Origin: Candidatus Aminicenantes bacterium
Lineage (GTDB): Bacteria; Acidobacteriota; Aminicenantia; Aminicenantales; Aminicenantaceae
Reading direction: 5' to 3'
Assembly (NCBI GenBank): GCA_030603565.1
Contig: JAUVXM010000003.1
Location: forward strand, 1,359-65,358
DNA length: 64,000 nucleotides
Shown here: piece by piece, positions 1,645-58,264 of the stretch
Position numbering within the stretch: the first letter of the stretch is position 1
Layout of the letters: each line of letters opens with the position of its first letter
Position numbers and translations under genes: made by a program
The notes under the pieces: generated by a model
The model's database searches: none
What the model was told of the DNA's origin: nothing
The model's input: only the letters and a program-made list of their open reading frames with translations

Positions 1645-1786
1645 CCTGAACTATTCATAAAAGATGTCGATATGTATGATACATCTTTTCAAATCAACAT
1701 TTTACCCTGATTCCTATATAGATTCAATTGACCACTTCGTTTTCGATATAATCTATATTTATAATCGACATTTTTTGCTCTTAATA
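1645..1786. repeat. MITE-like repeat copy: left terminal inverted repeat (TIR) intact, right TIR degenerate
   Basis: cctgaactattcataaaagatgtcgatatgtatgatacatctttt ... ataatcgacatttttt. Shares TIR and internal blocks with copies at 43277, 45524 and 57199. Confidence 0.6.
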
Positions 1787-1945
1787 CGTTTTATACAGGC
1801 CAATTCTATGAAACTCTCTATTTCCTGCTGACTTCTTGTTGACAGTATATGTTTGCTCTGTGTATCATTGTAAATAAAGCAGCTCAATGGGCTGATGTTA
1901 ACCACATTTGAGGGTTTTTCAGATGAAATTCTTTGAGACGAACTT

Positions 1946-3140
1946 ATGGAAAAAGAAGCCAAAGCAAGGATAAGAATCAATGGCCTCCTTCAGCGTGCAG
2001 GGTGGCGGTTTTTTGATAATGAAAACGGCCCGGCAAATATTGCCCTGGAAATAAATGCCAAAATAAAGAAGAAAGTTCTTGACCAGTTTGGTGATGATTT
2101 TGAAAAAACCGTTGACGGATTTGTTGATTATCTCTTGCTTGACAGTAAAGGCTTCCCCTGTGCGGTACTTGAAGCAAAATCCGAAAAATTAGACCCATTG
2201 GTTGGCAAAGAACAAGCCCGCAAGTACGCTAAATCGTTAAATGTTCGCTTTATAATTCTTTCCAATGGAAACCTCCATTATTTTTGGGACTTAGAGCATG
2301 GTAATCCATCCATTATAACCGACTTTCCTTTTTTCTCCCACCGATTTCATACAGATCAAGGGCCGCGGCACACGGAGATATACCTTTCAATATAAAACCA
2401 AAGAGGGCAGCCGCATAGAGGAGTACAGGGACGAAAAGGGAACCTTCAAACTCTTCGATTTCTTTGCCACCTGCGAATATTTTGAGGAGAAATTCAATTA
2501 CGACGAAGTGCTGGAACTGCCACCAACTCAAGCGGGCACAGGTGATGGCAGCGGCATCAGCATTGATGAATTCGAGAGCATCAAACCGGACCCCTTATCG
2601 TCTTATATAGAGTCTCGAGTAGGCTATCATGGAATGAAGATCGACAGGAAATTTTACGATCAATTCGAGGAAACCGTCAAAAAAGATGATACGGTTCGCG
2701 AGCACTATGAGCGCGGTAATATCAAAGCAGCCGAGGAATACATCAGGGACAACCTCTTTGATAAACCTGAAGAATTCTTCAATTTGGAGAAACTGCGAAA
2801 GTCGGTCCAGCTCGATCGCCGGCTCTGGTTGTGGGAGATTATTGAAAAGGCATTTGGAGGCATTGACCGGTTTAAGTCCAAAGATGAACTGCTTGACGAG
2901 GAATTAGATAAATTTGTATCCATTCACAGGCCTGATGCTTCTCATATTTCCCGGATCAGGGATTTTTTCAAAGCTTATATTACGGACAGTGAAATCCGTG
3001 ACATTATAGAGAATAAACAATACAATCGCCTTGCCACCAATCCCAAGGTAACTATTGCCGATCTTAAGGACCTTGAAGAGTGGCGGAATATAATACCTGA
3101 ATATGTAAAGGACTATGTTTCTCTAAACACATTTTTGTAA
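1946..3140 (+). pseudogene. hsdR: Type I restriction enzyme R subunit (hsdR) remnant: HSDR_N nuclease domain joined by an internal deletion and frameshift to helicase motif VI plus C-terminal domain; motor core missing
   Basis: ORF 1946..2395 is an HSDR_N / PD-(D/E)xK domain (VDYLLLDSKGFPCAVLEAKSEK). The frame switches near 2320 to ...DFIQIKGRGTRR (SF2 motif VI, QxxGRxxR) with no DEAD-box or motifs I-V before it. The 2508..3140 ORF resembles an R-subunit C-terminal region. About 600 aa of ATPase core are absent. Confidence 0.7.
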
Positions 3141-3180
3141 AATATAGAAAATATCTGTATGTGATAAATGAGGATAACTG

Positions 3181-3755
3181 ATGGATAAAAAAGGTGTTAT
3201 GATTCCTGTTGAGAGAATTAAGCAGTTGATTGTGTTCATCCGCGGTCAGAAAGTTATGTTGGATCGGGATCTTGCAGAACTTTATGGCATAGAAACAAAG
3301 GTTTTGAAGCAAGCAGTACGGAGAAACATAAAACGTTTCCCTGACGATTTTATGTTTGAGTTAACGAAAGAAGAATTTGAAAATTGGAGGTCACAATTTG
3401 TGACCTCCAATAGGGACAAGATGGGTTTAAGATATAAACCTATGGCTTTCACCGAGCAAGGTGTAGCCATTCTTTCAAGCGTTTTGAGAAGTGAGAGGGC
3501 AATAGAAGTCAACATTGCCATAATGCTGCCTTCGTGCAACTCCGCGAAATGCTGGCTTCTAACGTGGAGCTTGCCAGTAAGCTGAAACAAATGGAAAAGA
3601 AATATGATGAACAGTTTAAGATCGTCTTTGAAGCTATTCGCCAACTTATGACGCCGCCAGAGAAGCCACGCAAGAAGATTGGGTTTGTGGTAAAGGAAAA
3701 GCAAGCTGCCTATGGCCGTCGAGGCATAAAACGCAAAAAGGCTGACCATGCTTGA
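3181..3755 (+). pseudogene. ORF6N-domain DNA-binding protein disrupted by a 1-nt frameshift near 3520
   Basis: N-terminal part [53 protein letters not shown] is the ORF6N signature. The reading ...AIM breaks, and the +1 frame continues (R)[35 protein letters not shown] (ORF 3534..3755). One missing base near gccataatgc-tgcc restores a single ORF. Confidence 0.65.
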
Positions 3756-6285
3756 TAACGGAACAAAAAAGCGGATAGATTCCGCGCGTGACATCCTTGT
3801 GGGTAAGGTTCCCGACCCAAAATCACAGGTAGAACAGATAACCATCGCCATGATCTACAAGTTCATGGACGACATGGACAATCAAACCGAAGAACTCGGA
3901 GGCAAGGCCACCTTTTTTGCGGGCGAATTCAAACAATACGCCTGGAGCCGCCTGCTGGACCGCAAATTCAGCGGTCACCAACGTCTTCTCCTTTATGCTG
4001 AGGGCATAGAGAAGATGAATATAAACGAAAACATCCCCCAGCTTTTCAGGGATATTTTTAAAGGAACGTTTCTTCCTTACAGGGACCCGGAAACACTAAA
4101 TCTCTTTCTGAAGGAGATAAACGGCTTTGCCTATGACCACAGCGAACGCCTGGGGGATGCTTTTGAGTATTTGCTTTCCGTTCTGAGCAGTCAGGGCGAT
4201 GCGGGGCAGTTTCGCACCCCACGTTATATCATTGATTTCATAGTTGAAATTGTAAATCCAGCCAAAGAGGACACTGTTCTTGATCCTGCATGCGGCACTG
4301 CCGGATTCCTGATCTCATCATACAAACACATCCTTCGCCAAAACACCAACCTGTCTACGTGCGGGCACGCACAGGCAGGAGACCACCCCGGCGACCTCCT
4401 GACCACCGATGATAAAGGCAGGCTTATGACCAATTTCTGCGGCTATGATATCTCCCCTGACATGGTGCGTCTGTCCCTGGTCAACATGTATCTGCACAGT
4501 TTTGCCAATCCATCAATTTATGAATACGATACACTTACCAGTGAAGACCGCTGGGACGAGCGTTATGATGTGATCATGGCCAATCCGCCATTTATGTCGC
4601 CCAAAGGGGGCATCCGGCCCCATTCCCGTTTCAGCATAAAGGCCAAACGGAGCGAAGTTCTTTTTGTGGACTACATCGCCGAACACCTCAATGTTCACGG
4701 CAGGGCCGGCGTCATTGTTCCTGAAGGGATCATCTTCCAGTCCCAGAATGCCTATAAGAATCTGCGCAGAATGTTGATTGATGAAGGCTACTTGTATGCG
4801 GTTATCTCCCTGCCTGCCGGGGTCTTTCAGCCATATTCGGGCGTAAAAACCAGCATCTTGATCATGGATAAAACCCTGGCAAAGAAGACCACTGAAATTC
4901 TTTTCGTAAAAATAGCAAACGACGGCTTTGACCTCGGAGCACAGCGTCGCCCCATTGAAAAGAACGACCTGCCCCAGGCCCTTGAGGTTGTCAAGGGCTG
5001 GAAGCAGGCAATCGGCGAAGGTAAAGGCTTTGAGTTTAACGAGGACGACAAGACAATCGCGCATACTGTCAGAAAAGAGAAAATTGCCGAGTCTGGCGAT
5101 TACAACCTCTCCGGGGACAGGTATAAAGAGGTTATGAGTTACGCCAATGTCAAGTGGCCGATGGTGGAGTTGGGGGATAAAAGCCTCTTTCAAATTGAAT
5201 CAGGCGGCACTCCAAGTTCCAACAAATCAGAATATTGGGATGGCGATATTAGATGGATAACATTGGTTGATTTACCCAAAGAAAATTTTATAACTTATAT
5301 TTCTGATACCAAAAGAAAGATTACAGAATTGGGATTAAGCAATTCATCTGCAAAGCTTCTGCCCAATAAAACTGTTTTGGTGTCGTCTCGTGCTACTATA
5401 GGCAGAATTGCTATTTCCCAAACAGAACTTGCGACAAATCAGGGATTCAAGAATGTAATCATTAAAGATTTCAGCAAGGTTAATGAAAAATATTTAGCGT
5501 GCATGCTTATGCGATTAGTTCCACAGATGGAGCAAATGGGAACTGGTGGCACATACAAAGAGATATCAAGAGCAAGCTTTTCAACTCTACGTATCCCCCT
5601 CCCACCCCTGGAAGTTCAGGAGAAGATTGTCGCGGAACTGGACGGTTATCAGGAAATCATTGATGGCGCAAAACAGATTGTCGAAAACTACAAACCCACA
5701 ATCAAAATCGACCCCGACTGGCCGTTGGTGGGGTTGGGGGAGGTGTGTGATATTAAGTCAGGCGGAACACCAAAAAAAGATGTTGATGACTATTGGGAAA
5801 ATGGTGAAATTCCTTGGCTTGGCTCTGGAGTCTGCAAAGATAATATTGTTTCTGAAAGTTCAGATTTTATAACTGAAACTGGTTTTAATAACTCCTCAGC
5901 TAAGAAATTGACCCCAAAAACTACATTAATCGCATTAGTTGGTGCTACGATAGGAAAAACAGCATTTCTTACTTTTGAAGCAACTACAAACCAAAATATT
6001 GCAGGCCTATATCCATTGAATACCAATGAATTACTTCCCGAGTTTCTATTTTATATTTCGCAAAGCCTATATTCAGAATTTATTAGTTTGGGGTCTGGAA
6101 AATTTAGAATGGCAAATCTAAGTTTCATAAGGGGATTGAAAATTCCCCTCCCACCCCTAAAAACTCAGGAAAAAATCGTTGCTGAAATCGAATCTGAGCG
6201 TGAGCTTGTGGAGGCGAATAAGAGGTTGATCGAGATTTTTGAGAAAAAGATAAAGGACAAAATCGGTGAAATCTGGGGGCAATAA
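3748..6285 (+). CDS. Fused type I RM methyltransferase-specificity protein (HsdM gamma-class N6-adenine methyltransferase domain plus HsdS with two target-recognition domains) in one 845-aa polypeptide
   Basis: [11 protein letters not shown] (motif X), [12 protein letters not shown] (motif I), IMANPPF (motif IV NPPF). From about aa 470 there are two target-recognition domains, each ending in the HsdS conserved repeat [17 protein letters not shown] / [17 protein letters not shown]. Start ATG overlaps the upstream ORF6N stop (ATGCTTGA). Confidence 0.85.
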
Positions 6286-6297
6286 TAAGGAGCATTC

Positions 6298-6660
6298 ATG
6301 AGTGAAAATGGAGTTATTCCAGGTGATCAGATTAAAAGCATTATCTTCCTGATACGCGGTCAAAAGGTCATGTTAAGCCCTCACCTGGCGGAGCTGTATA
6401 ATATTGAACCGCGCGTTCTGGTTCAGGCAGTAAAGCGAAATATCGAGAGATTCCCAGAGGATTTCATGTTTCAGTTGACAGACGATGAGTTTTTAAACTT
6501 GAAATCACAAATTGTGATTTCAAGTTGGGGTGGCTCTCGCAGGGCAAAACCCTATGCCTTCACTGAACAGGGTGTTGCGATGCTTCCATTGGGTTTTATA
6601 GTAAAGGAAAAGAAGGCTGCCTATGGCAAAAAAGAGGGCAGAGGAAAAGAAAAACCATGA
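6298..6660 (+). CDS. ORF6N-domain protein, shortened paralogue (central coiled-coil segment deleted)
   Basis: [57 protein letters not shown] then directly [16 protein letters not shown]. Same N- and C-terminal blocks as 3181..3755 but about 50 aa shorter. Overlaps the radC start. Confidence 0.55.
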
Positions 6661-7319
6661 AAACCATTAAAGACATGCCCGAACACAGCCGGCCCCGTGA
6701 GAAGCTGCGGGAAAAAGGCGCGTCTGCTCTGACCGACAAGGAACTGGTAGCCGCCATCCTTGGCCGTGGCATTGAAGGCGTGGATATTGTTACAATGTCC
6801 AGGAACGTCGCACGGCTGATACGAAAACATAAAGAGAACCTTTCTGTTGAGCATCTTACGTCTGTGCCGGGGATGGGGCTTGCCAAGGCCGCTCAGATAC
6901 TCTCGGCCTTTGAATTGGCAAGGAGATACCTGCTCAAAGAGACCGTAAAAATCACCAGCGCCAAGGATATCTTGCCCTTGGTTGCCGACATTGCCGATAA
7001 AAAACAAGAATATTTTGTGTGCATATCCTTAAACGGAGCCAACGAGCTCATTGAAAAGCGTATTGTCACCATCGGCCTTGTGAACAGCAGCCAGATTCAT
7101 CCGCGTGAAGTCTTTGCCGATGTCATCGCAGACCGTGCCGCTTCCGTCATCTTTGCCCATAACCATCCATCCGGCGACCCAAAACCAAGCGAAAGCGACG
7201 CAAAAACCCACAGGCAGCTTACAGAAGCCGGAAATATCCTCGGCCTTCGGATTCTCGATCACATAATAGTAACTAAAAAAGGATACTTCAGCTTCCAGGA
7301 AGCCGGATTGATTAGTTAA
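6657..7319 (+). CDS. radC: RadC-like JAB-domain protein
   Basis: N-terminal helix-hairpin-helix region ([10 protein letters not shown]..), JAB metal motif [27 protein letters not shown]. Confidence 0.85.
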
Positions 7320-7476
7320 CGGAAAAAACAAAAGAACAATACAAGGACAAACTCAAACTTCTGAAAAAGGGCCTCCTACAGGATTTGTTAACCAGCAAAA
7401 TGGAGTTTAGGATTTAAGAGACACTAAGCTTGCTTATAGGGGAAAAAAAGGTTAAAATTATACTAACATAACTGAT

Positions 7477-8115
7477 ATGGCATATCCAATTCCAACTCCA
7501 ATTTATCACCTTACTCACATCGATAACTTGACCTCTATTATTCAGTCAGGAGGCTGCTTATCTTTTAACCAGATGCAAAATCAGGGGATTGGTCACATTG
7601 ATATTGCATACGAAACCATTCAAGCCCGCCGTGTACAAACATCAGTTCCATACGGTCCTGGAGGATGTTTACACGACTACGTGCCCTTTTTTTTTGCTCC
7701 ACGTCCCCCAATGCTCTATGCGATCCACGGAGGGAATGTGGAAGGATATGAACAAGGGCAGATCCCTCTCATTTATCTGGTTACAACAGCTCAAACTGTC
7801 AGCAATAGCAGCAGTGAATGGGTTTTTACAGATGGACATGCAACTATGGCATTTTCCGGATTTTTTGACGATCTAAATGACCTTGATGAGATCGACTGGG
7901 AGGTTATGGAGTCGCGATACTGGAATGATACGCCAACTCTGCCCGACAGAAAGCGCAGACGACAAGCAGAGTTTTTAATTAAAGATTGTTGTCCCTGGGA
8001 ATTGTTTTCAGAAATCGGGGTCATAAACTCACGAATGGGATCAAGGGCGGAAAATATTCTCGAAAAAAACAGACATCAACCAATTGTTCAGATACACGGG
8101 AACTGGTATTATTAG
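7477..8115 (+). CDS. darT: DarT ssDNA thymidine ADP-ribosyltransferase toxin (DUF4433)
   Basis: IYHLTHIDNLTSIIQSGGCLS at the N-terminus and RKRRRQAEFLIKDCCPWELFSEIGV at the C-terminus (catalytic Glu in the AEFL motif). Size 212 aa. Immediately followed by a macrodomain gene. Confidence 0.8.
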   Translation: MAYPIPTPIYHLTHIDNLTSIIQSGGCLSFNQMQNQGIGHIDIAYETIQARRVQTSVPYGPGGCLHDYVPFFFAPRPPMLYAIHGGNVEGYEQGQIPLIYLVTTAQTVSNSSSEWVFTDGHATMAFSGFFDDLNDLDEIDWEVMESRYWNDTPTLPDRKRRRQAEFLIKDCCPWELFSEIGVINSRMGSRAENILEKNRHQPIVQIHGNWYY

Positions 8116-8127
8116 AAGGAGGGAATC

Positions 8128-9195
8128 ATGATTAAGCTTACGCAAGGCAACGTTATCGAAGCCGATGTGGAAGCCCTTGTCAATACCGTAAATTGTGTGG
8201 GTATTATGGGCAAGGGTATCGCTCTCCAGTTTAAGCAGGCATTCAGGGATAACTTCCAGGCATACACAAATGCTTGTAGAAAGGAAGAAGTCAAGCCGGG
8301 GCTCATGTTCATCTTCCCTACTCATAGAATGATCAATCCTAAATACATCATTAATTTCCCAACAAAGCGGCACTGGAAGGAAAAATCTAAGCTCGAATAC
8401 ATTGAGCAAGGACTAAACAGTTTGGTCAAGGAAGTCCGCCGGTTAAGAATCAAGGCTATTGCCATACCTCCTTTGGGTTGTGGCTACGGTGGGTTGAAAT
8501 GGCCAGTGGTCCGTAATCTAATCGAAACCTCATTCGATCAATTGCCCGATGTCCAGGTGCTCCTTTTCGAACCTGGAAGAACACCCGAGGCTGAATCAAT
8601 GCCTATAGATTTCACAAAACCATCATTAACGCGTGCCAGGGCTCTTCTCATTAAGCTCCTTGAGCAGTATGCCATACCAGGTTACCGGTTGAGCCTGCTG
8701 GAAATCCAGAAGCTTGCATATTTCCTTCAGGTTGCGGGTGAACCTCTTCGTTTGGAGTATGTCAAACAGAAGTATGGACCTTATGCTGAAAATCTTAATT
8801 TCGTGCTGCAACTATTGGAAGGGCATTACATTCGGGGATATGGGGACCGCAGTGTCAGGGCATCTATCCGCCTTCTCAATAGTGCCGGTGAGGAGGCCAG
8901 TAGGTTTTTGGCAGATAATCAAGAAGCCTTCCAACGCCTCGAGAGAGTGGGGCAACTAATTGAGGGTTTTGAAACGCCCTATGGTATGGAGCTCTTATCA
9001 TCCGTGCATTGGGTTGCAGTGGCCGATGACAAACCAGCTCAAACCGTGGATCAGGCCGTGAATCAGATTTTTGCCTGGAATGCCCACAAAAAAAAGACTT
9101 TCAAAGCCAGTCATGTCCACAAGGCATGGCAGCGTCTTGTTGAGCAAAGCTGGTTGCCAATTTTTTCATCGACCCTTTCTAATCCTTCGCATTGA
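8128..9195 (+). CDS. darG: DarG antitoxin: N-terminal TARG1-like macrodomain (ADP-ribosyl-DNA hydrolase) plus C-terminal DarT-binding domain
   Basis: EADVEALVNTVNCVGIMGKGIALQFKQAF macrodomain signature. 355 aa. RBS AGGAGGG 6 nt upstream; 12 nt downstream of darT. Confidence 0.75.
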   Translation: MIKLTQGNVIEADVEALVNTVNCVGIMGKGIALQFKQAFRDNFQAYTNACRKEEVKPGLMFIFPTHRMINPKYIINFPTKRHWKEKSKLEYIEQGLNSLVKEVRRLRIKAIAIPPLGCGYGGLKWPVVRNLIETSFDQLPDVQVLLFEPGRTPEAESMPIDFTKPSLTRARALLIKLLEQYAIPGYRLSLLEIQKLAYFLQVAGEPLRLEYVKQKYGPYAENLNFVLQLLEGHYIRGYGDRSVRASIRLLNSAGEEASRFLADNQEAFQRLERVGQLIEGFETPYGMELLSSVHWVAVADDKPAQTVDQAVNQIFAWNAHKKKTFKASHVHKAWQRLVEQSWLPIFSSTLSNPSH

Positions 9196-10500: not shown

Positions 10501-10535
10501 GTGAATAATTCAAGTCCGCCTGAACTATTCATAAA
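10501..10535. repeat. Solo TIR palindrome of the MITE family (right end and left end abutting)
   Basis: gtgaataattcaag tccg cctgaactattcataaaaa; lies between vapC and larA. Confidence 0.5.
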
Positions 10536-10924
10536 AATTGAAGTTTTAGCCTAATATTTTTATTGATCAGTTTAAAATGTGAATCTGCTGTAACTATAGT
10601 CAAATCATAATAAATAGCATGTGCAGCAATAATTAAATCTGTTAAAGGAATTGTATAACCTTTTTTTCTTAATCTGAATCCAATCTGGGATGTCTGTGCA
10701 AATATATTTTTATCAGTTTTTAGATGTTTAAAACCTTCAAAATTATTTTTGAGAAAGGAGAATTCTTTTTTATTAACTGCCCCAATAAGAAGCTCACTCA
10801 AAATAATACCATTATAATAGATTTTGTCTTCTTCAATTAAAGGCAGAAGAAAATCATTAACTGCTTTGTTCTTGCCTTTAAAAAAATCAATCCAAATTGT
10901 ACTGTCAATAATAAATTTACTCAT
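10529..10924 (-). CDS. vapC: PIN-domain toxin VapC
   Basis: 131 aa; IIDSTIWIDFF (N-terminal acidic residue), TIVTADSHF. Overlaps the upstream antitoxin by 8 nt. Confidence 0.75.
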   Translation of the reverse strand: MSKFIIDSTIWIDFFKGKNKAVNDFLLPLIEEDKIYYNGIILSELLIGAVNKKEFSFLKNNFEGFKHLKTDKNIFAQTSQIGFRLRKKGYTIPLTDLIIAAHAIYYDLTIVTADSHFKLINKNIRLKLQFL

Positions 10925-11232: not shown

Positions 11233-12441
11233 TTGACATCTGAACTTTCATATGATATTACGGCTCATATGGAATCTATTTCTGCCAAGCGCCTCCCCTA
11301 TTCAAAAATCCGGGTGATGTTTGATGCTGCTAAAAAACTGGAAAAACAGGGCAGAGATATCATCCATCTAGAGATCGGCCGGCCTGACTTTAACACACCC
11401 CAGCACATCGTAGAAGCAGCTATCGAGGCTTTAAAGGCAGGAAAGCACCACTACTCGGCCAATGCCGGCATAATCGAACTGCGGGAAGCAGTAGCTGAAA
11501 AATACGCATCTGAATATAAACTGAATTTCTCTCCAGAGTCTGAGATCGTGATCACAAACGGAGTGGCAGAAGGAGTCTTCCTGGTAATAAATGCCCTGCT
11601 TGATCCGGGAGACCAGGTTCTAATCCCTAATCCACGCTGGGTCAATTACGAACCGGATGCCTACACAAACTTTGTTGAACCAATAAGTTATACTCTGTTT
11701 GAGGAAAAAAACTTCCAGCCTGATCCTGAGGAGGTGGAGGAAAAAATCACCCCCCGGACAAAAATGTTGATTTTAGCCAGCCCCTCCAATCCTACCGGGG
11801 GGGTCACAAGTAAAAAAATTCTTGAACAGATTGCTGCGTTGGCTGAAAAACATAACCTCATAGTAGTAAGCGACGAGATCTACGAAAAGATCATCTATCC
11901 TCCCGCTGAACACATCTGTGCTGCATCCTTAGAGGGTATGCAAGAACGAACAATAGTGCTGAACGGATTCTCTAAATTTTACTCGATGACAGGCTGGCGG
12001 TTGGGATATGCTGTGGGCCCGCAAAAATTAATTGACCCGCTATTACGTTACCACCAATACATGATAACCTCGACCAACACTTTTGCCCAATGGGGTGCGG
12101 TGACAGCGCTTAAAGGAGACCAGAATCCGTCTCTTATAATGCGGGACAAATTCCAAAAACGGCGGGATTTTATCCACACTGCGGTCAATGAAATTCCCGG
12201 GTTTTGCTCTACCCTGCCGGCCGGAGCTTTTTATCTCTTCCCCTCTGTCAAAGAAACGGGGCAAAAAGGAATTCAGGTCGCAGAGATGTTACTTGAAAAA
12301 GCCGGAGTAGCAACAGTCGCTGGTGAGTATTTCGGTATAAAAGGAGCCGGGCACATCCGGATATCCTATGCCAATTCTATGGAAAACCTTAAAACTGCGG
12401 TTAAGAAAATTAAAGCTGTTATGATAAGCAGTGAACAGTAA
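11233..12441 (+). CDS. Class I/II PLP-dependent aminotransferase (aspartate/aromatic aminotransferase family)
   Basis: GFSKFYSMTGWRLGY (PLP lysine), NPTGG, PNPRW. True start may be the internal ATG at about 11269. Confidence 0.85.
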   Translation: MTSELSYDITAHMESISAKRLPYSKIRVMFDAAKKLEKQGRDIIHLEIGRPDFNTPQHIVEAAIEALKAGKHHYSANAGIIELREAVAEKYASEYKLNFSPESEIVITNGVAEGVFLVINALLDPGDQVLIPNPRWVNYEPDAYTNFVEPISYTLFEEKNFQPDPEEVEEKITPRTKMLILASPSNPTGGVTSKKILEQIAALAEKHNLIVVSDEIYEKIIYPPAEHICAASLEGMQERTIVLNGFSKFYSMTGWRLGYAVGPQKLIDPLLRYHQYMITSTNTFAQWGAVTALKGDQNPSLIMRDKFQKRRDFIHTAVNEIPGFCSTLPAGAFYLFPSVKETGQKGIQVAEMLLEKAGVATVAGEYFGIKGAGHIRISYANSMENLKTAVKKIKAVMISSEQ

Positions 12442-12614
12442 ATGGTAAATAGTAAATGGTAAATAAAACCAGGAGAAGCAGGGCTATAAAAGCTAATCGT
12501 CATTCCGGTGAGTTTAAGCATCGTCATTCCGGCGGAAGCCGGAAACCAGGATAAATAGTAAATGGTAAATAGATAATGGTTACCCTAAAAAATTCATAAA
12601 TCGCGGAGGTATTG

Positions 12615-15404: not shown

Positions 15405-15473
15405 AGGGGTGGTTTAAACAGCAAAAATGTCGATTATAAATATAGATTACATCAAAAACAAAAGGAGGTTATT

Positions 15474-18014
15474 ATGATATTAAAATCTAAAACAAAATTA
15501 TTCGGGAAAATATCTCTTCTGCTGTTTATTTTGGTTATCTGTACAACCATAGTTCCAGCAGAGCAGGAAAATCAGTTTAAGGAAGCTTACCTTAAACCGC
15601 CGGCATCCGTACAAGATTTACTCACCCGGGATAGGCATTACGATACTTTAAACAACCTAAGCCCTGATGGGACTCATTTTTTAATACCCATAAACTCCCA
15701 ATTTTCCTCTCTCAAACTAATGACCCAAAAAACCTACAGATTGGGCATGCTGGAGATCTGCCCGGATGTAAACCGGGAATGGCGGCTTTCAACCTATGGG
15801 ACAAAAAAGCTTAAGATCTATTCTTTAAGCCAAAGGAGAAGCTGGAATATCGGGCTTCCTGAAAATATCTTTGTAAGTGACATGACCTGGTCTCAGGATG
15901 GAAAAAAGATCGCCTTTCTGGCCCATTTTCCCAAGGGAAGCCAGGCATGGACTGCAGATGTCCAAAGCGGTAAAGCTAAAGCCTTGCACAAAGCCTTTGT
16001 AATGGCCACTTTGACAGGCCGCAGCCGTTGGGGGAGCTCCTCTTCAGCTTCACAGATGCTGCAGTGGACACCCCAAGGGACAGTTATAACCCTTCTTGTT
16101 CCGGACAACAGAGGCCCGGAACCAAAAAAGAGCCCTATTCCGGACTCTCCCATCATCCGCCACACACGCAAGAAAGATTCCCCGACATCTACTTACCCTT
16201 TTCTTATGAGGACATCTCATGACAAAAAGCTTTTTAAATATTATACCTACGCCCAGCTGGCAGAGTTTGCTCCGGGAAAATCTCCCCGGAAAATAGGCGA
16301 ACCAGCCATGTATATGAGTATCTCCTTAAGTCCAAACGGAAAATATATTCTTGTAGAAAAAATTGTTGAGCCGTTTTCCTATATCGTAAGTTACAGCAGC
16401 TTTCCCCGCGAACTTCAAGTAATGGATCTGAGCGGAAACATCCTGTCAACTGTCAGGAAAACCCCGCTTCGGGAAGCAGAGGCAGGGAATGGAAGAGACA
16501 GGTCTCAAGCTGATCTTCCCCGGAATGTCACCTGGAGACCTGACGGAAAAGGTCTGTCATTCCTCTGGAAAGAGCAAAAAGAAAAAGACAAGGAAGACGA
16601 TGAGGAAGAAGAAGAAAGTAATGCCAGTGAAAGAAAAGACAGATTGATGCTGCTGGCTCCACCCTTTTCTATGGATGAAACAACTACCCTTATCACCAGT
16701 AAAAAAAGCTTCAGCAGCATCTCATATGCCCCCAATGGCCGCTATGTTTTCACTAAGCTCAGCGGAAGAGGCGAAGACGGGCAGACCGGGACTGATCTGG
16801 CCGCTTTTGACCTTAGTCAAACTCCTCCCATAAAAACCATACTGCTTAAAGATATGGAAACCAAAGACCCGCTTAAATTTCCCGGAGATATCATAACTCA
16901 ATCCACAGGCAATGGAGTTGACTTTGCTCTCCTTTCCAGTGATGGAAAATCTATCTATCTCGAAGGCCGGGGGTATAAAGAAAATTTCAAGCCCCAGCCT
17001 TTTATCGACAGAATAGAGATCTCTACCGGCAAAAAAGAAAGGACCTTTGAGGGCGCAAAAGATTTCTACGAACGTCCGCTGGTTCCGCTTGACAATGATC
17101 TAAAGCGTATTATTATCAGCCGGGAATCCAAAACTGCTTTTCCCAACAGCTATCTATGGGAAAAAGACGGAACAGGAGAGAAGCTAACAAATAATAAGAC
17201 CCCTTACCCGGAATTAAAGGCCAGTAAAAGAATCGATTTTGAGTTTACCCGCAGAGACGGTCTTGAGATCCAGGGCCGCATCTCACTTCCCCCGGGTTAT
17301 GAGAAGGGAACCCGGGTTCCCGCTGTCTTCTGGACATATCCAAGCGAATATAAATCATTCAAAGATTATAAGCATTCTACCATACGAGGAGACAATCACA
17401 ATGCTTTCCAGCGCTTCAGCACCCGGAATGCATCGGATATATGGCTGACACAAGGATATGCAGTAGTTGTACCGGATATTCCTATTATCGGAAAGGGGAA
17501 CACTTACAACAACAATTTCATCGCTCATTTGGTTGACTCGATGTATGCCGCCATCCGCAAAGTCGGTAATCTCGGTTATGTTGATGTCGATCGTCTCGGC
17601 CACGGCGGCCACAGTTACGGTGCCTTTTCCACTGCGAATATTCTGGCGCACTCCCCCTTCTTTAAAGCCGGAATTGCCGGTGACGGAGCATACAACCGGA
17701 CTCTTACTCCCATGACTTTTCAGCGGGAACGGCGTTTCATCTGGGAAGCCCAGGACATATACCTGGAAATGTCCCCCTTCTTCCAGGCAGACCACATCGA
17801 TACTCCGCTTCTCATGTACCATGGAGCTGTAGATAACAACACCGGCACCTTCCTGATACAATCCGAGCGCATGATCCAGGCGCTGACCGGATTGGGAAAA
17901 AACGCCGTACTCTACATATATCCTTTTGAATCCCATGGCCCCCGCTGTAAAGAGACCTATATGGATATGTGGGCCCGCTGGCTGGAATTCTTCGACACTT
18001 ATGTTAAAAAATAA
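15474..18014 (+). CDS. Secreted S9-family serine peptidase (prolyl oligopeptidase / acylaminoacyl-peptidase-like; beta-propeller plus alpha/beta hydrolase domain)
   Basis: Signal peptide; GHGGHSYGAF (GxSxG) with downstream D and H blocks (MYHGAVDNNTG, FESHGP); acidic insert KEDDEEEEES. Confidence 0.8.
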   Translation: MILKSKTKLFGKISLLLFILVICTTIVPAEQENQFKEAYLKPPASVQDLLTRDRHYDTLNNLSPDGTHFLIPINSQFSSLKLMTQKTYRLGMLEICPDVNREWRLSTYGTKKLKIYSLSQRRSWNIGLPENIFVSDMTWSQDGKKIAFLAHFPKGSQAWTADVQSGKAKALHKAFVMATLTGRSRWGSSSSASQMLQWTPQGTVITLLVPDNRGPEPKKSPIPDSPIIRHTRKKDSPTSTYPFLMRTSHDKKLFKYYTYAQLAEFAPGKSPRKIGEPAMYMSISLSPNGKYILVEKIVEPFSYIVSYSSFPRELQVMDLSGNILSTVRKTPLREAEAGNGRDRSQADLPRNVTWRPDGKGLSFLWKEQKEKDKEDDEEEEESNASERKDRLMLLAPPFSMDETTTLITSKKSFSSISYAPNGRYVFTKLSGRGEDGQTGTDLAAFDLSQTPPIKTILLKDMETKDPLKFPGDIITQSTGNGVDFALLSSDGKSIYLEGRGYKENFKPQPFIDRIEISTGKKERTFEGAKDFYERPLVPLDNDLKRIIISRESKTAFPNSYLWEKDGTGEKLTNNKTPYPELKASKRIDFEFTRRDGLEIQGRISLPPGYEKGTRVPAVFWTYPSEYKSFKDYKHSTIRGDNHNAFQRFSTRNASDIWLTQGYAVVVPDIPIIGKGNTYNNNFIAHLVDSMYAAIRKVGNLGYVDVDRLGHGGHSYGAFSTANILAHSPFFKAGIAGDGAYNRTLTPMTFQRERRFIWEAQDIYLEMSPFFQADHIDTPLLMYHGAVDNNTGTFLIQSERMIQALTGLGKNAVLYIYPFESHGPRCKETYMDMWARWLEFFDTYVKK

Positions 18015-20314: not shown

Positions 20315-20407
20315 GGATAAATACATAAGTCGAACGAAAACAAAGTTTTCAAAGTGTTTCCCCAAAAATCAAAGGAACATACTGAAAATACAGAAATTAA
20401 ATTAAAC

Positions 20408-20434
20408 ATCGACATTTTTTATGAATAGTTCAGG
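20408..20434. repeat. Solo right TIR of the MITE family
   Basis: atcgacattttttatgaatagttcagg. Confidence 0.55.
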
Positions 20435-20537
20435 TTAATAGGAACACCCATTATATTTCTGTTTACCATTGGCATTGCATCTCAACTTTCCCTTTCCAGC
20501 ACTTCCTGCTAGAATAAAATCTCATCGCTTCGCTCCG

Positions 20538-30567: not shown

Positions 30568-30582
30568 CCTGAATAATTCACG
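30568..30582. repeat. Solo TIR-end motif of the MITE family
   Basis: cctgaataattcacg. Confidence 0.35.
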
Positions 30583-43143: not shown

Positions 43144-43165
43144 TTAAAACTCCTCTCAATCCTGA

Positions 43166-43224
43166 ACTATTCATAAAAAATGTCAATATGTATGATACCT
43201 CTTTTGTGTATAATCCAGGTCCTC
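43166..43224. repeat. Internally deleted MITE derivative (both ends, about 60 bp)
   Basis: cctgaactattcataaaaaatgtcaatatgtatgatacctcttttgtgtataatccagg, followed by another left-TIR fragment cctgcactattcat. Confidence 0.55.
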
Positions 43225-43276
43225 CTGCACTATTCATATTTTTATTATAACATTCTGCCTTTCAACTAACAACTAA

Positions 43277-43409
43277 CCTGAACTATTCATAAAAAATACC
43301 GATGAATGCTACATCTTTATTAATAAGTATTCTACTCTGATTGATACGTGAATTCTTTTTACCTTTTCGTTCACGATGTAATTTATATTAATAATCGACA
43401 TTTTTTACC
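43277..43409. repeat. MITE-like repeat copy
   Basis: cctgaactattcataaaaaataccgat...ttttcgttcacgatgtaatttatattaataatcgacatttttta. Confidence 0.6.
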
Positions 43410-43513
43410 TTTCAGGCAAGCCGATCTTACCGCATCTACTTTGTTGCAGCGCATTCGCAGTGAAGGACCACAGCTTCATCCCCTGCGCCTCGTATCTGCA
43501 GCAACCTCGACTC

Positions 43514-43558
43514 GTGAATAATCCAGTTTAACCTGAACTATTCATAAAAAATACCGAT
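43514..43558. repeat. Solo TIR palindrome of the MITE family
   Basis: gtgaataatccag tttaa cctgaactattcataaaaaataccgat. Confidence 0.5.
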
Positions 43559-43747
43559 ATTCATGTTGATTAGATTCATTGTTAAAGCCGGTTAATAGAA
43601 AATGGTAAATGGCAAGACAATTCAAGTCTCCCCGCATCGCAAGCTCCCGATCTATTTCATCGTAAAAAGTAATATTTTTGATATAATATTTACAATATAT
43701 TTTCTTTGGAAGGCATATTTGCGTATGAAATAACCGCAAGGATTATA

Positions 43748-43835
43748 TGGTGCGGAAGGTGGGAGTCGAACCCACACAGCCTTTTGGGCCATAAACTCCT
43801 GAGGCTTACGCGTCTACCAGTTCCGCCACTTCCGC
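43748..43835 (-). tRNA. tRNA-Leu (anticodon CAG), type II with long variable arm
   Basis: Minus-strand GCGGAAGTGGCGGAACTGGTAGACGCGTAAGCCTCAGGAGTTTATGGCCCAAAAGGCTGTGTGGGTTCGACTCCCACCTTCCGCACCA: 7-bp acceptor stem, anticodon loop CT-CAG-GA, long variable arm, GTTCGACTC T-loop, encoded CCA. Confidence 0.85.
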
Positions 43836-43901
43836 ACACCTTTCTTTCTGTCACAATCTCTGAAAAAATATTATAGCTGTTATCCTCTTGCTTTTCAACT
43901 C

Positions 43902-43944
43902 GTGAATAACTCAGGCTAGCCTGAAATATTCATAAAAATTACCG
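43902..43944. repeat. Solo TIR palindrome of the MITE family
   Basis: gtgaataactcagg ctag cctgaaatattcataaaaattaccg. Confidence 0.5.
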
Positions 43945-44376: not shown

Positions 44377-45522
44377 ATGAAACTTCTGAGCCAGGAACAA
44401 ATCGAAACTCTGGCAAAATTTAAATGTAAGGATTTATTTACCACTTCTTTTTTTCTCGACACCAGTAAAAACAGGCTGACAAAAAAAGAAATCCAACTGT
44501 CTTTAAAAAACCTTCTGTTTAACAGCAGGAAAAAGCTTAAAGAGATGTCGCTATCCAAAGCCAAAAAAGAATCTTTGGTACAGGATCTGGAAAAAATTGA
44601 GAAATACTGTCAGCAAAATCTTTCCGGGTCAAACTTCGTGGGCCTGGCTATTTTTTCTGGCAGTGAATGCGATCTGTGGAAGGTTTTTAACTTGGTTAAA
44701 TCCCCCAGAAATATGATTATTTTTGACCATAATCCCTATATCCGACCGCTATCAGCGATCCTGACTGAATACCATCGTATTTGTGTGCTGACTTTCGACC
44801 GAAAGGAAGCCAGATGGTATAATATTTATATGGGAGAGATCTTTGAACTGGGATCTCTTCAGAGTGATGTCCCCAGCCGCATTAAAGAAGGAGGCTGGCA
44901 AGGATACAGATCAAAACGCATTGAAAGACATATGACTTCGCGCCTCCGTGATTTTTTTAAGAAAACCGCCAAGGAAACATTCACTCTAATGAAAAAACAC
45001 AATTTTGAGTGGCTCTTTCTTGGATGTAAAGACGAATACTATGCAGAGTTGGAGCCATTACTTCATCCCTACCTAAAAGAAAAAATAAAAGCACGCATCA
45101 AAGCAAATCCCGGAGATTCAGCAAATATAATTCTCCAGAAAACTTTAAAGATAAAAGATAAATTAAAAAAGCAAGAAAAAGAAAAAATCGTACAAAATTT
45201 CATCTCTGAACATGAAAAAGACGGACTGGCTGTCTCCGGGCTGGAAAACACTCTAAGCAAACTAAACCGGGGTGGAGTTCAAACCCTTCTAGTAACACGC
45301 CATTTCTCCCAACCGGGAAAATTTTGCCCTAAATGCCACTTCCTGTTCACCAATAAATCCGAATGTCCATCCTGCAGGGTAAAAACCAAACCCTTAATAG
45401 ACGTTATTGATGAAGCCGTAGAAGCAGCTTTGAACTCAAGCAGTGATGTGAAACATATAAATCCGCCTTCCCCCCTGGACAAATACGGCGGCATCGGAGC
45501 ATTTCTGCGTTATAAGATATAA
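44377..45522 (+). CDS. Bacterial eRF1/Pelota-like (baeRF-type) protein with GGWQ loop and C-terminal zinc ribbon
   Basis: Central-domain block ICVLTFDRKEARWY followed by VPSRIKEGGWQGYRSKRIERHMTSRLRDFFKKTAKE, which parallels eRF1 KKHGRGGQSALRFARLR..RHNYVRKVAE. C-terminal CPKCHFLF...CPSC. RBS AAGGAGG. Promoter-like TTGACA..TATAAT at about 44268. Confidence 0.6.
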   Translation: MKLLSQEQIETLAKFKCKDLFTTSFFLDTSKNRLTKKEIQLSLKNLLFNSRKKLKEMSLSKAKKESLVQDLEKIEKYCQQNLSGSNFVGLAIFSGSECDLWKVFNLVKSPRNMIIFDHNPYIRPLSAILTEYHRICVLTFDRKEARWYNIYMGEIFELGSLQSDVPSRIKEGGWQGYRSKRIERHMTSRLRDFFKKTAKETFTLMKKHNFEWLFLGCKDEYYAELEPLLHPYLKEKIKARIKANPGDSANIILQKTLKIKDKLKKQEKEKIVQNFISEHEKDGLAVSGLENTLSKLNRGGVQTLLVTRHFSQPGKFCPKCHFLFTNKSECPSCRVKTKPLIDVIDEAVEAALNSSSDVKHINPPSPLDKYGGIGAFLRYKI

Positions 45523-45523
45523 A

Positions 45524-45668
45524 TTTGAACTATTCATAAAAACTGTCGATATTTATGATACTTCTTTCTAATTCAATATTTTACATTAATCTCTAGGTAT
45601 AAACTATTGGTCTTTTCGTTCACAGTGTAATCTCTATTTTAATCGACATTTTTTATGAATAATCCAGG
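45524..45668. repeat. MITE-like repeat copy filling the gap between convergent stops of the eRF1-like gene and the RND pump
   Basis: tttgaactattcataaaaactgtcgatatttatgatac...ttttcgttcacagtgtaatctctattttaatcgacattttttatgaataatccagg, then an extra partial end tgcataatccag. Confidence 0.65.
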
Positions 45669-45681
45669 TGCATAATCCAGT

Positions 45682-51233: not shown

Positions 51234-51253
51234 ATATAAACTCCTTAATTAAT

Positions 51254-51295
51254 CTGAACTATTCATAAAAAATATCGACTCGGGAATAATCCAGG
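51254..51295. repeat. Minimal MITE (both TIRs, about 42 bp) between tetR and tolC
   Basis: ctgaactattcataaaaaatatcgactcgggaataatccagg. Confidence 0.5.
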
Positions 51296-52158: not shown

Positions 52159-52497
52159 ATGGGAGATGAACTTAAAAAATATAATGAATTTCGAGAAAAG
52201 ATGAATAAACACATATTAAACTCCGGCAACCTTGAGCTGAAGCGTTTTTTCGCTCTTGATAAAAATGCCTACAAAGACGGTGCCCTGCCAGCTTCTACAA
52301 AAGAGCTTTTAGGCCTGGCTGCATCCATAGTGCTAAGGTGCAATGATTGCATCGCCTATCATCTTACCCGGTGTGTTGAACTGGGTTTTTCAGATGAACA
52401 GCTTTATGAAGCTTTTAATGTGGCCCTGGTAGTCGGAGGCTCAATAGTAATTCCCAACTTACGTAAGGCTTTTGTAACATTGGAAGAGCTAACGTGA
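52159..52497 (+). CDS. Carboxymuconolactone decarboxylase / AhpD-like family protein
   Basis: 112 aa; CNDCIAYH (CxxC..H AhpD-core motif). Confidence 0.7.
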   Translation: MGDELKKYNEFREKMNKHILNSGNLELKRFFALDKNAYKDGALPASTKELLGLAASIVLRCNDCIAYHLTRCVELGFSDEQLYEAFNVALVVGGSIVIPNLRKAFVTLEELT

Positions 52498-52524
52498 ATA
52501 ACTCAGGTACTCTGAATTATTCAT
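52494..52524. repeat. Solo TIR palindrome of the MITE family, overlapping the AhpD-like stop codon
   Basis: gtgaataactcagg tact ctgaattattcat. Confidence 0.5.
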
Positions 52525-52536
52525 AATAATAAGGAA

Positions 52537-53151: not shown

Positions 53152-54054
53152 TTATGCACGGGGGTGATATTTATTATATACCTGACACAATCTTTTCCGG
53201 CTGACCTGCGTATATATCTGGGTTGTAGTTATTTGACTGTGTCCCAGCATAAGCTGAATCGAGCGAAGGTCTGCCCCTCTTTCCAGCATGTGTGTAGCAA
53301 AAGAATGACGCAGCATATGAGGGCTGATCTTCTTGTCCAACCCAGCCTTTAAGGCATAGCCTTTAAGAAGTTTCCAAAATCCCTGCCGGGTAAAACACCC
53401 TCCTCTTAATGTTAAAAACACAAAATCATTTTGCTTTTTGACATACTGCCGGCGTGCTTCTTTAAGGTATGTTTTTATCGCTGAAGAAGCTGAGTTTCCC
53501 ATTGGGACAACTCTCTCCTTGCCCCCTTTCCCGCGACAGATAAGGAAACTATCATCAAGGTTAAGGTCCTTTAATTTCAATTTTACCAGCTCAGATACAC
53601 GTAAACCTGTAGCATAGAGTAATTCAAGCATCGCTTTATCCCTGATACCGCGGATATCTTCATCTCCAGGCTGGTTTAAAAGACGCTCCACTTCTTTTAT
53701 TTTTAAAAACTTTGGCAGTTTGAACCATATTTTTGGTGAACTGAGATTAGCCGCAGGATCCTTTTTAATTACTCCGTCCAGGATTAAAAATCTGAAGAAT
53801 GCTTTTAAAGAAGAAATCAGCCGGGCCAAGGAACGGGAAGAAAGACCTGCCCTGCTCTGTTGATGAATGAATTTGATCAGATCATTTTCGTCGACTTTAT
53901 TCCAGGTGATCTTTTCTTTTTGAAAAAACAGAAAGAATTTATTTAAGTCATGGGAATAGGCCCGAATAGTATTGGAGGAAAGACCCTTTTCCACGGAAAG
54001 AAACTCAAGGAAAACCCGCAGAATGCCCTCGGGAGATGAGAGAAGGTTGCTCAT
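53152..54054 (-). CDS. xerD: Tyrosine recombinase XerD/XerC
   Basis: C-terminus HMLRHSFATHMLERGADLRSIQLMLGHSQITTTQIYTQVSRKRLCQVYNKYHPRA is near-collinear with E. coli XerD (RHSFATHLL..GADLR..Q.LLGHS..STTQIYTHV). N-terminal phage-integrase SAM-like domain. Confidence 0.85.
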   Translation of the reverse strand: MSNLLSSPEGILRVFLEFLSVEKGLSSNTIRAYSHDLNKFFLFFQKEKITWNKVDENDLIKFIHQQSRAGLSSRSLARLISSLKAFFRFLILDGVIKKDPAANLSSPKIWFKLPKFLKIKEVERLLNQPGDEDIRGIRDKAMLELLYATGLRVSELVKLKLKDLNLDDSFLICRGKGGKERVVPMGNSASSAIKTYLKEARRQYVKKQNDFVFLTLRGGCFTRQGFWKLLKGYALKAGLDKKISPHMLRHSFATHMLERGADLRSIQLMLGHSQITTTQIYTQVSRKRLCQVYNKYHPRA

Positions 54055-57173: not shown

Positions 57174-57194
57174 TTTAAATTCCCATATTTTTAA

Positions 57195-57347
57195 TTAACC
57201 TAAACTATTCATAAAAAATGTCGATTACAAATAAAGATTATATTTTGAACGAAATGATAAATTGAGTTACTGTAGAAATCAATGTAACATAGTGATAAAA
57301 AAAGATGTATCATACATATCGACATTTTTTATGAATAGTTTAGGTTA
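57195..57347. repeat. Best-preserved MITE copy: perfect 29-bp TIRs flanked by TTAA on both sides
   Basis: TTAA-aacctaaactattcataaaaaatgtcgat ... atcgacattttttatgaatagtttaggtt-TTAA, about 90-bp core. Confidence 0.7.
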
Positions 57348-57433
57348 AAGATATTTTACTATATAATAAATAAATTACAAAGCCAAAAAAATATAATCAA
57401 AACAATATGTCTAAAAATCTTTAGCAACTTCAA

Positions 57434-58243
57434 ATGGAAATAAGAAAAAAAGTCGGATTCATCCTCGGCCCTCTGCTTTTTTTCCTAATATATTTCGCTC
57501 CCATACTTTCTGAAAATCCCAGAGCCCATGACCTTTTGGCCGTATTTCTCCTGGTAGTTGTATGGTGGGTGACTGAATGTATTCCGATTCCTGTAACGGC
57601 ACTCTTAATCCCCGTTTTTATAACAATACTTAAAATTTCAACTGTAAAAGAGGCATTAACCCCATTTGCCAATCCCATAATACTGCTCTTTCTGGGCAGC
57701 TTTATCTTGGCCAGGGCCATGTATGTCCATGGAATCGACCTTAAACTTGCCTATTCAGTACTCTCATTAAAATCCATCCGGAATAAACCAATCCGGATAT
57801 TATTTGCCTTAGGGCTAACATCAATGTTTCTGTCGATGTGGATAAGTAACACTGCCACCACTGCCATGATGTATCCTATCGCCCTGGGAGTACTATCAAC
57901 ATTTCACCAGGACAAAAAGAAAACAAGGGAACTGTCTTTTGGAGTAGTACTGCTCCTAACCCTTGCTTATGCAGCCTCCATCGGCGGAATTGGCACCCCT
58001 ATCATAATTGCCATTACTCAGGCTGTGGGTATTAATCCGCTGCCGCCGGTACTGGGCAGTGCTATAGGCTGCAGCTTTGCATTTATGCTGCCGGTGGCGA
58101 CGCCTCCTAATGCTATAATTTACGGATCCGGCCTCATCAAACTCCCCCAGATGATGAAAGCCGGCTTCTGGCTAAATATAGCCGGCATTCTGATTATCTG
58201 GCTTAGCATTACTTTTCTTGCCCCCTTACTCGGATTGATCTGA
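57434..58243 (+). CDS. DASS/SLC13-like anion permease, unusually short (269 aa; possibly internally deleted)
   Basis: VVVWWVTECIPIPVTALLIPVF (N-terminal hairpin block), one SNTATTAMM motif, C-terminal PPNAIIYGSG. Canonical members have two SNT motifs and are more than 440 aa. Confidence 0.45.
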   Translation: MEIRKKVGFILGPLLFFLIYFAPILSENPRAHDLLAVFLLVVVWWVTECIPIPVTALLIPVFITILKISTVKEALTPFANPIILLFLGSFILARAMYVHGIDLKLAYSVLSLKSIRNKPIRILFALGLTSMFLSMWISNTATTAMMYPIALGVLSTFHQDKKKTRELSFGVVLLLTLAYAASIGGIGTPIIIAITQAVGINPLPPVLGSAIGCSFAFMLPVATPPNAIIYGSGLIKLPQMMKAGFWLNIAGILIIWLSITFLAPLLGLI

Positions 58244-58264
58244 ACTATTAATAAAAAATGTCGG
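58240..58264. repeat. Solo left TIR of the MITE family overlapping the permease stop codon
   Basis: ctgaactattaataaaaaatgtcgg. Confidence 0.5.

Follow-up and report, generated by a model that had tools for sequence, protein, structure and literature searches.

A 64,000-nucleotide stretch of contig JAUVXM010000003.1 of a Candidatus Aminicenantes bacterium (i.e. the window) contains a dispersed family of short intergenic repeats. These repeats belong to genomes of the class Aminicenantia (candidate phylum OP8, Acidobacteriota) and are very probably non-autonomous miniature inverted-repeat transposable elements (MITEs). The family is a new one from a little-studied lineage and a known kind of selfish element, with one unusual feature, a hairpin that is conserved on one strand. 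The features expected of MITEs were found: small size, absence of coding capacity, 27-bp terminal inverted repeats (TIRs; ~27 assemblies), a 4-bp YTAR target duplication and dispersed copies with insertion polymorphism between species. An earlier reading of the letters of the window (i.e. the original prediction) had proposed an uncharacterised non-autonomous element, and the TIRs, the 4-bp duplication, the presence/absence differences and the many body-containing copies agree with that proposal.

A repeat family of Aminicenantes genomes

The 27-nt terminus CCTGAACTATTCATAAAAAATGTCGAT had 10 matches in the window at ≤3 mismatches as compared to 0.00 expected from shuffled sequences, and its 17-nt core had 15 matches as compared to 0.19 expected, indicating that the predicted repeat family is genuine. 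The outer 14 nt of the terminus (CCTGRAYTATTCAY) occurred at 21 sites with ≤1 mismatch. All 21 were intergenic, as had been predicted, in a sequence that is ~86% coding; for the window and related loci together, 221 of 231 sites were intergenic with a coding share of 86%. A hidden Markov model (HMM) built from four copies was used with nhmmer to search the window. Near full-length copies were detected at 1643-1788, 43274-43419, 45522-45668 and 57200-57347 with E-values of 1e-36 to 1e-39, and the same HMM additionally recovered partial copies and solo ends.

The original prediction would have been weakened by confinement of the repeat to the window or by a lack of body-containing copies elsewhere. 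A scan of species-representative genomes with a 25-nt degenerate terminus found the exact 25-nt terminus in at least 103 stretches from at least ~27 other Aminicenantes assemblies. Nearly all of these stretches were labelled Candidatus Aminicenantes or Aminicenantaceae, the remainder being third-party annotation (TPA) bins syntenic with them. Related loci (numbered with the prefix L; ~740 kb in all, around >200 element sites) were then compared with the window; most were retrieved by an exact match to the left repeat, whereas L108 and L109 were retrieved through a protein and are unbiased in this respect. In these loci, nhmmer gave 139 matches, of which 67 were full length. Many matches to the terminus were at the ends of contigs or only a few bases away, as is expected of a dispersed repeat that breaks assemblies. 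Scanned viral contigs gave no matches, and no paper connecting Aminicenantes with inverted repeats was found in the literature. One part of the window matched a contig of CSMAG_2585, a metagenome-assembled Aminicenantes genome, with 95.7% identity.

Much of the intergenic repeat content of this uncultured lineage, which occurs worldwide in sediments and digesters, is explained by the family. The family also explains contig breaks, and knowledge of it would improve assembly, binning and annotation, as stop codons and gene ends overlap copies. Copies are also usable as markers in strain-level and species-level comparisons.

Anatomy of the element

The TIR consists of two parts, an outer repeat of 14 nt (CCTGRAYTATTCAY) and an inner repeat of 13 nt (AAAAAATGYCGAT). 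The layout is near-invariant, comprising outer repeat, inner repeat, an AT-rich body of ~92 nt, inner repeat, an optional GC-rich module and outer repeat. Conservation is close to 2 bits per position in the repeats but weak in the body (roughly 0.2-1.5 bits), which is free to diverge. The internal blocks that had been assigned to the whole family are present in a subfamily and, given the weak conservation of the body, are therefore subfamily-specific. No coding capacity was detected, the largest open reading frames (ORFs) being ≤57 aa.

The predicted size of ~145 bp holds for a short form of 146 bp (i.e. the copies at 57199 and 45524), but a long form of ~252 bp, which is the commonest form in other species, had been missed. 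The long form carries a module of ~107 nt between the inner and outer right repeats, with a 105-nt GC-rich hairpin and a 3-bp mini-hairpin. Mini-elements of 33-60 bp contain little beyond the two ends. In several loci a second, unrelated hairpin cargo (GAAATTCAGGTGTGGC...GCCACATCAGAATTTC) is located inside the same TIR frame. A hairpin of ~45 nt (GAAATTCAGGTGTGGCTTGTGCTCGCTTCAGCCACATCAGAATTTC), sometimes accompanied by a further insert of ~170 nt, was observed within this frame in L038, L052 (480-571), L104, L106, L028, L031 and L002. In L104 and L106, which are close relatives of the window, this ~45-nt hairpin lies downstream of baeRF, at the site of the 146-bp short form of the window.

The copies and pieces identified in the window were as follows.

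1645..1776, plus strand: copy with body; left TIR complete with 1 mismatch, inner right repeat ATCGACATTTTTT, outer right repeat absent; nhmmer 1643-1788, E = 9e-40
10501..10537, unstranded: back-to-back junction of right-end remnant GTGAATAATTCAAG, TCCG and left-end remnant CCTGAACTATTCATAAAAAT, between convergent lactate racemase and PIN protein genes
15411..15465, minus strand: fragment with the inner repeat and the right part of the body, without the outer repeat; nhmmer model positions 93-147, E = 5e-7
20335..20437, minus strand: partial copy of ~100 nt; perfect 27-nt TIR at 20408-20434, then TTAA
24649..24675, plus strand: solo right end ATGGAGATTTTTTATGAATAATCCAGG; repeat family D6
30568..30581, unstranded: lone outer 14-mer CCTGAATAATTCAC preceded by TTAA; the weakest site
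43161..43219, plus strand: 59-bp mini-copy of left TIR, 18-nt body and outer right repeat, then TCCT and a solo outer motif at 43224-43237
43277..43527, plus strand: long form, 251 bp; left TIR, body, inner right repeat, GC-rich hairpin module, outer right repeat GTGAATAATCCAG; flanks CTAA/TTAA
43407..43513, minus strand: GC-rich hairpin module of this long form; nhmmer E = 1.4e-30, covariation; the strand with conserved pairing is the minus strand of the window
43532..43567, plus strand: solo left end, next to the long form with TTAA between them, downstream of tRNA-Leu(CAG) (43748-43835, minus)
43902..43940, unstranded: back-to-back junction upstream of tRNA-Leu; GTGAATAACTCAGG, CTAG, CCTGAAATATTCATAAAAAT
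45524..45681, plus strand: short form of 145 bp (45524-45668) with an outer-motif remnant reaching the stop of the AcrB gene
51253..51295, plus strand: 43-bp mini-element, left TIR fused to right end TCGACTCGGGAATAATCCAGG; TTAA on both flanks; between OEP and TetR genes
52494..52524, unstranded: back-to-back junction; GTGAATAACTCAGG, TAC, TCTGAATTATTCAT; overlaps the stop of the CMD gene
57199..57344, minus strand: short form of 146 bp; perfect 27-bp TIRs, TTAA duplication; between divergent genes
58236..58263, plus strand: solo left end containing the TGA stop codon of an anion symporter gene

Four of the five body-containing copies that had been listed (1645, 43277, 45524 and 57199) do have bodies, the fifth (43166) being the 59-bp mini-copy at 43161-43219. 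The copy at 1645 has the body and the left TIR but lacks the outer half of the right repeat. The copy at 43277 has the body but belongs to the long form; it spans 251 bp up to 43527, GC-rich hairpin module included. The perfect TIRs of the 57199 copy, with TTAA on both flanks, were as described and amount to a perfect 31-nt inverted repeat when TTAA is counted on both sides. Among the proposed solo sites, 20408 proved to be the end of the ~100-nt partial copy (20335-20437), and 30568 is present but only as an isolated 14-mer. Three pieces (15411-15465, 24649-24675 and 43224-43237) were additional to the earlier list; the first of these immediately precedes the ribosome-binding site of gene 15474. 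The ~32-bp palindromes, which had been described as two TIR ends facing each other, do consist of paired ends but in the opposite arrangement, with a right end and a left end back to back and 3-4 nt apart. Sixteen such junctions (i.e. right end, 3-6 nt, left end) were counted, five of them in the window.

The tRNA-Leu(CAG) gene (43748-43835, minus) has element ends on both sides (43532-43933), the distance from left TIR to right outer repeat being 384 bp. This unit resembles a tRNA-carrying element. The tRNA is a resident gene, however, because it is also found upstream of baeRF in the element-free locus L107. Immediately beside the solo outer repeat at 43902 is a strong promoter-like site (TTGAAA, 17 nt, TATAAT; 43898-43870, minus).

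Target duplication and insertion polymorphism

Identical 4-mers flanked 12 of 46 complete copies, as compared to 3.4 expected when partners were shuffled, and none of 20000 permutations reached 12. For 77 units, the base at left -4 matched that at right +1 in 54 cases (32.2 expected, p < 2e-4) and the base at left -1 matched that at right +4 in 42 cases (33.7 expected, p = 0.014), with enrichment along the 4-bp diagonal at each informative position. A 2-bp TA duplication of the IS630 type was ruled out, as the duplication extends to the outermost of the four flank positions. The 18 identical flank pairs included seven TTAA, five CTAA, one CTAG and one TTAG as well as the non-consensus TGTA, TTTA and ATAA. 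Non-TTAA flanks are thus duplicated, indicating that the duplication is real and that TTAA is not a terminal part of the element. These statistics support a target-site duplication of 4 bp with the consensus YTAR or TTAA (i.e. YTAR, not strictly TTAA).

Differences in presence or absence, the lack of which would have counted against a mobile element, were observed at several orthologous sites and accompany this statistically supported duplication. A 253-bp copy lies between two genes in L052 where L094 has a 12-nt spacer, a 58-bp copy of L064 is absent from L067, and a copy in L005 is replaced in L089 by 49 unrelated nt. The order of genes in the window from 44.4 to 58.2 kb (baeRF, AcrB, MFP, OEP, TetR, CMD, Xer, MBL ... 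symporter) is conserved in L108, a 20.8-kb piece of the complete genome CP070750.1, and in L109 (12 kb). Neither of these loci contains a single element copy, as compared to ~9 sites in the corresponding part of the window. At another orthologous site, with flanks 94% identical, L015 has a full long copy and L072 a 27-nt solo end, indicating that solo ends can be deletion products and that at least one is. Remnants consisting only of a TIR (27-40 nt) were much commoner than longer truncations; this excess could reflect palindrome-stimulated deletion or constraint on the repeats.

A hairpin conserved on one strand

The hairpin of the long form was examined in an alignment of 25 modules from many species. 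The favoured strand (polarity CCUGGAUUAUUCAC to hairpin) folded with -56.0 kcal/mol and 38 pairs, as compared to -25.3 kcal/mol and 28 pairs for the opposite strand. On the favoured strand 96.5% of cells were paired (813 Watson-Crick, 103 G·U and 10 A·C), whilst the same helices on the opposite strand were 86.7% paired. Recurrent G·U occurred at 13 pair positions and recurrent A·C at none. Compensatory changes on both sides were present in 23 of the 38 pairs but in ≤8 for slid controls. For four of five measures the observed values were reached by none of 500 shuffles, and for the fifth by one.

The repeats follow the same pattern. In the outer repeats of long forms, position 5 is usually A at the left end and G at the right end; read on the same strand as the hairpin, 24 of 32 copies therefore have G·U at position 5, and 19 of 32 have U·G at position 7. 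The inner repeats pair almost perfectly, and their position 9 covaries (U-A in 23 copies, C-G in eight). Within one copy the inner repeats were perfectly complementary in 49 of 94 cases, as compared to 26 when partners were shuffled. A single strand of the long form with this polarity would fold into P1 (outer repeat), the long hairpin, the 3-bp mini-hairpin and P2 (inner repeat), which would close the body.

Copies occur in both orientations, and strand-biased mutation in place therefore cannot explain the pairing asymmetry. Template-switch correction of quasi-palindromes could add compensatory changes but would not yield the G·U polarity. From these data we infer that pairing of the hairpin and outer repeats has been selected on one strand and that a single-stranded form, either RNA or single-stranded DNA (ssDNA), matters to the element or its host. 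No significant bias in hairpin orientation was observed relative to neighbouring genes, whether upstream (19 same-strand, 14 opposite) or downstream (24 and 16). One-strand selection in the absence of such a bias indicates selection at the level of the element, so that selection on the single-stranded form probably acts on element lineages. In the loci examined, the module was always inside a TIR frame and never alone. Only tRNA-Leu passed the Rfam gathering score in the window, and an E-value scan of 43100-43620 produced one chance match (E = 7.4). Scans for sigma-70 promoters and intrinsic terminators found nothing above background inside copies, and the hairpin was rejected as an intrinsic terminator since its A-run and T-run are on the wrong side. 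A cargo hairpin that is paired on one strand across many species offers a concrete and testable case for asking whether a functional single-stranded structure can be part of a non-autonomous element.

Mobility and placement of copies

As a MITE, the element inserts by a cut-and-paste reaction into YTAR or TTAA and duplicates 4 bp, as the flank statistics show; it would be mobilised in trans by a DDE transposase, presumably encoded elsewhere in the genome. Copies subsequently decay in place, with internal deletions producing mini-palindromes and solo ends, and right and left ends placed back to back ~4 nt apart account for the 32-bp palindromes.

Copies lie 0-30 nt from gene ends, and the predicted placement at stop codons is frequent: the copy at 45524 begins one base past the baeRF stop codon, and the solo end at 58236 contains the TGA of the symporter gene. 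The YTAR target includes TAA or TAG, both of which are stop codons, and insertions within genes would be lost. Such a target preference, combined with selection against intragenic insertion, would leave survivors at gene ends and often exactly at stop codons, which explains the placement without any need for a regulatory role.

Pfam scans of all 49 called genes agreed with the prediction that the window contains no transposase. ORF clustering of all loci detected no recurrent transposase family, and the ten genes enclosed by inverted end pairs were all housekeeping genes, none encoding a transposase. Two candidates were rejected. An end pair in L005, considered as a parent element, encloses an ilvE-like gene. 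The XerC/D-like gene at 53152-54054, the sole recombinase of the window, was considered as the mobiliser but is syntenic in the element-free L108 and L109.

Several findings weigh against an origin of the family as MITEs. No autonomous partner with matching ends was found in the window or in the ~740 kb of loci around >200 sites. No clean empty site was obtained from a near-identical strain; the presence/absence cases are all between species that are 65-94% identical, and with such comparisons differential loss may formally account for them. A look-up of exact proteins for near-identical strains returned nothing on record. A metagenome scan with the baeRF protein yielded three close relatives in which the site holds another hairpin element or has a rearranged flank, and thus no clean empty site. 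Best matches between bodies of one genome had a median identity of 80% and did not exceed 90%. The copies in the sample must therefore be old, with no recent transposition seen, and the family may be extinct or no longer active in some lineages. Inactivity in places would in turn explain the missing autonomous partner. The spacers of back-to-back junctions are often TYCK or AGAA and not YTAR, so simple tandem insertion into a duplicated target does not predict these junctions. Left-repeat conservation is inflated in the loci by exact-match retrieval, and the argument from conservation is based on the right ends and the window. Orthologous site A (L005, L019 and L089) is unusable for left-repeat conservation, all three loci having been retrieved by the left repeat. 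Finally, strand-specific pairing has no role in plain double-stranded cut-and-paste.

In a tentative and rather doubtful extension, drawn from the fold that is conserved on one strand, the long form would be a functional single strand, serving either as an RNA or ssDNA cofactor for mobilisation in trans or as a structured RNA co-opted in many untranslated regions. The cofactor idea is likened to the guide or bridge RNAs that serve some insertion sequence (IS) families.

Alternative explanations

A role at the level of the host, with mobility as the origin only, is unlikely. Under this explanation the repeats or the hairpin would be kept as structured RNA in untranslated regions (i.e. a stabiliser, processing site or attenuator) or as a site for a nucleoid or regulatory protein. 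Such constraint would suit the repeats of the window, which were not selected by the search pattern and have 0-3 mismatches per 27 nt as compared to 75-81% identity of the bodies, and also the solo ends of ~27-40 nt, which are far commoner than random truncation would give. The 96.5% pairing of the hairpin, its 23 covarying pairs and its RNA-like polarity point the same way, as do some copies in which the element itself provides a stop codon or the stretch adjoining a start codon. Conversely, the hairpin has no orientation bias (19 versus 14 upstream, 24 versus 16 downstream), no Rfam family was matched, and promoter- or terminator-like sites are not enriched in the elements. The syntenic intergenic regions of L108 and L109 are element-free, and therefore no site is essential. 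A more specific regulatory explanation, in which the 14-mer palindromes are operators of a single regulator controlling adjacent genes, draws on the ~32-bp size of the back-to-back junctions, typical of sites for dimeric regulators. It is effectively refuted: the genes next to the sites are unrelated and have every orientation, with sites frequently downstream of stops or between convergent genes, most copies have bodies of 146-252 bp and a target duplication, and the sites are absent from the orthologous regions of other species.

The original prediction had also raised a system like the repetitive extragenic palindromic (REP) sequences and bacterial interspersed mosaic elements (BIMEs). As in proteobacteria, or as in REPINs, the hairpins would be recognised as ssDNA and spread by a domesticated, single-copy HUH transposase of the REP-associated tyrosine transposase (RAYT) type. 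The elements are strictly intergenic, abundant and mosaic, no transposase lies beside any of >200 sites, and the one-strand pairing (103 G·U versus 10 A·C) would suit recognition of one DNA strand. However, IS200/IS605 and RAYT-type enzymes are not known to make a target duplication, whereas the flanks here carry one of 4 bp. The ends are long, sequence-conserved inverted repeats of 27 bp, in contrast to the imperfect palindromes of REP sequences, which are short and carry a conserved GTAG head; the hairpin module is never solo but always within the TIR frame; and no Y1-transposase or RAYT gene was seen in the window or the ~740 kb of sampled loci. This explanation is very unlikely, and the transposable element is favoured over it by the long TIRs and the target duplication, both of which are absent from REP sequences.

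Comparison with known systems

The closest likenesses include bacterial MITEs, namely the Correia (Neisseria), ERIC/IRU, RUP and Nezha elements, which are also non-coding, 100-300 bp long and bounded by TIRs of roughly 25 bp with a short target duplication. These elements, too, occur between genes in many copies, including decayed and nested ones, and could form long hairpins when transcribed. The present family differs in its uncultured Aminicenantia host, in having no sequence similarity to them, in its two-part TIR with cargo between the halves and in a GC-rich hairpin paired on one strand. Correia elements duplicate TA as compared to the 4-bp YTAR found here. REP/BIME and REPIN systems with their RAYT share the intergenic location, abundance, mosaic structure and long hairpins, as well as an enzyme that is not beside most copies, but differ in the TIRs, target duplication, GTAG-type head and RAYT gene considered above.

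The ends of the present elements begin with CCTG, unlike the GG-type ends of IS5, and no transposase gene was found here. The 4-bp YTAR duplication and the bias towards non-coding DNA are both shared with the IS5 group, for which these properties have been reported (PMC5009759). A link to IS5 would thus be an inference from the target signature only. Likeness to piggyBac/IS1380 lies in TTAA, the commonest target and duplication here, and in ends that begin with CC; piggyBac ends read TTAA followed by CCC, and the ends of the IS1380 family are similar. The target is relaxed to YTAR in the present family, however, and non-TTAA duplications are frequent. IS1380 serves as the prokaryotic outgroup of piggyBac (PMC10813416), and IS1247 of the IS1380 family makes a 5-bp duplication (PMC3281130). 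Both of these possible links are to be taken as leads.

Other features of the window and related loci

An apparent defence island occupies 1946-9195 of the window, with the copy at 1645 at its left edge. The island encodes an 845-aa protein with fused N6-methylase and specificity domains, which has an ORF6N-domain protein on either side, as well as an HSDR_N-domain protein, a RadC-like JAB protein and a pair consisting of DarT (an ssDNA ADP-ribosyltransferase) and a macro-domain (DarG-like) protein. The DASS/SLC13 anion symporter at 57434-58243 has 269 aa as compared to 450-470 aa in relatives. As its first ~190 and last ~79 residues align to these relatives, ~190 codons have seemingly been lost in frame. 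The identical 269-aa protein has an NCBI record, on a contig of 77.8 kb.

Other repeats were also observed. A second, short G-rich repeat (GGTTAGGTTGGGTCGGC, GGGTGGGGCGGGTCGG) is present in either orientation in L004, L005, L019, L032, L045, L053, L094, L095, L098 and L108 (e.g. 670-700); it is nested in some hairpin modules and is also intergenic in the element-free genome CP070750.1. Another inverted-repeat element, with arms of ~30 nt (GGGGTCGCATCTCAACATTCGACATTTTTTTT ...) that include a TCGACATTTTTT motif like the inner repeat, is located at 8045-8190 of L109, between CMD and Xer, where a back-to-back junction is present in the window. A motif of ~14 nt (AATAGTAAATGGTAAATAG; families D9 and D13) has several copies upstream of an M14 peptidase gene (12431-12580) and one near tRNA-Leu (43591-43615). 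A 65-nt direct repeat (TG.CCGGATTGGGAAAAAACGCC...; family D11) with 89% identity has one copy at 17884-17948, within the 3'-terminal part of a peptidase S9 gene, and one at 32148-32212, just downstream of a Na+/H+ antiporter gene. The intergenic region beside the sulfatase-TPR gene is ~150 nt long in the window (63762-63910) as compared to ~30 nt in the 95.7% identical CSMAG_2585 contig (L097, 2715-2745), an indel that is unrelated to the repeat family.

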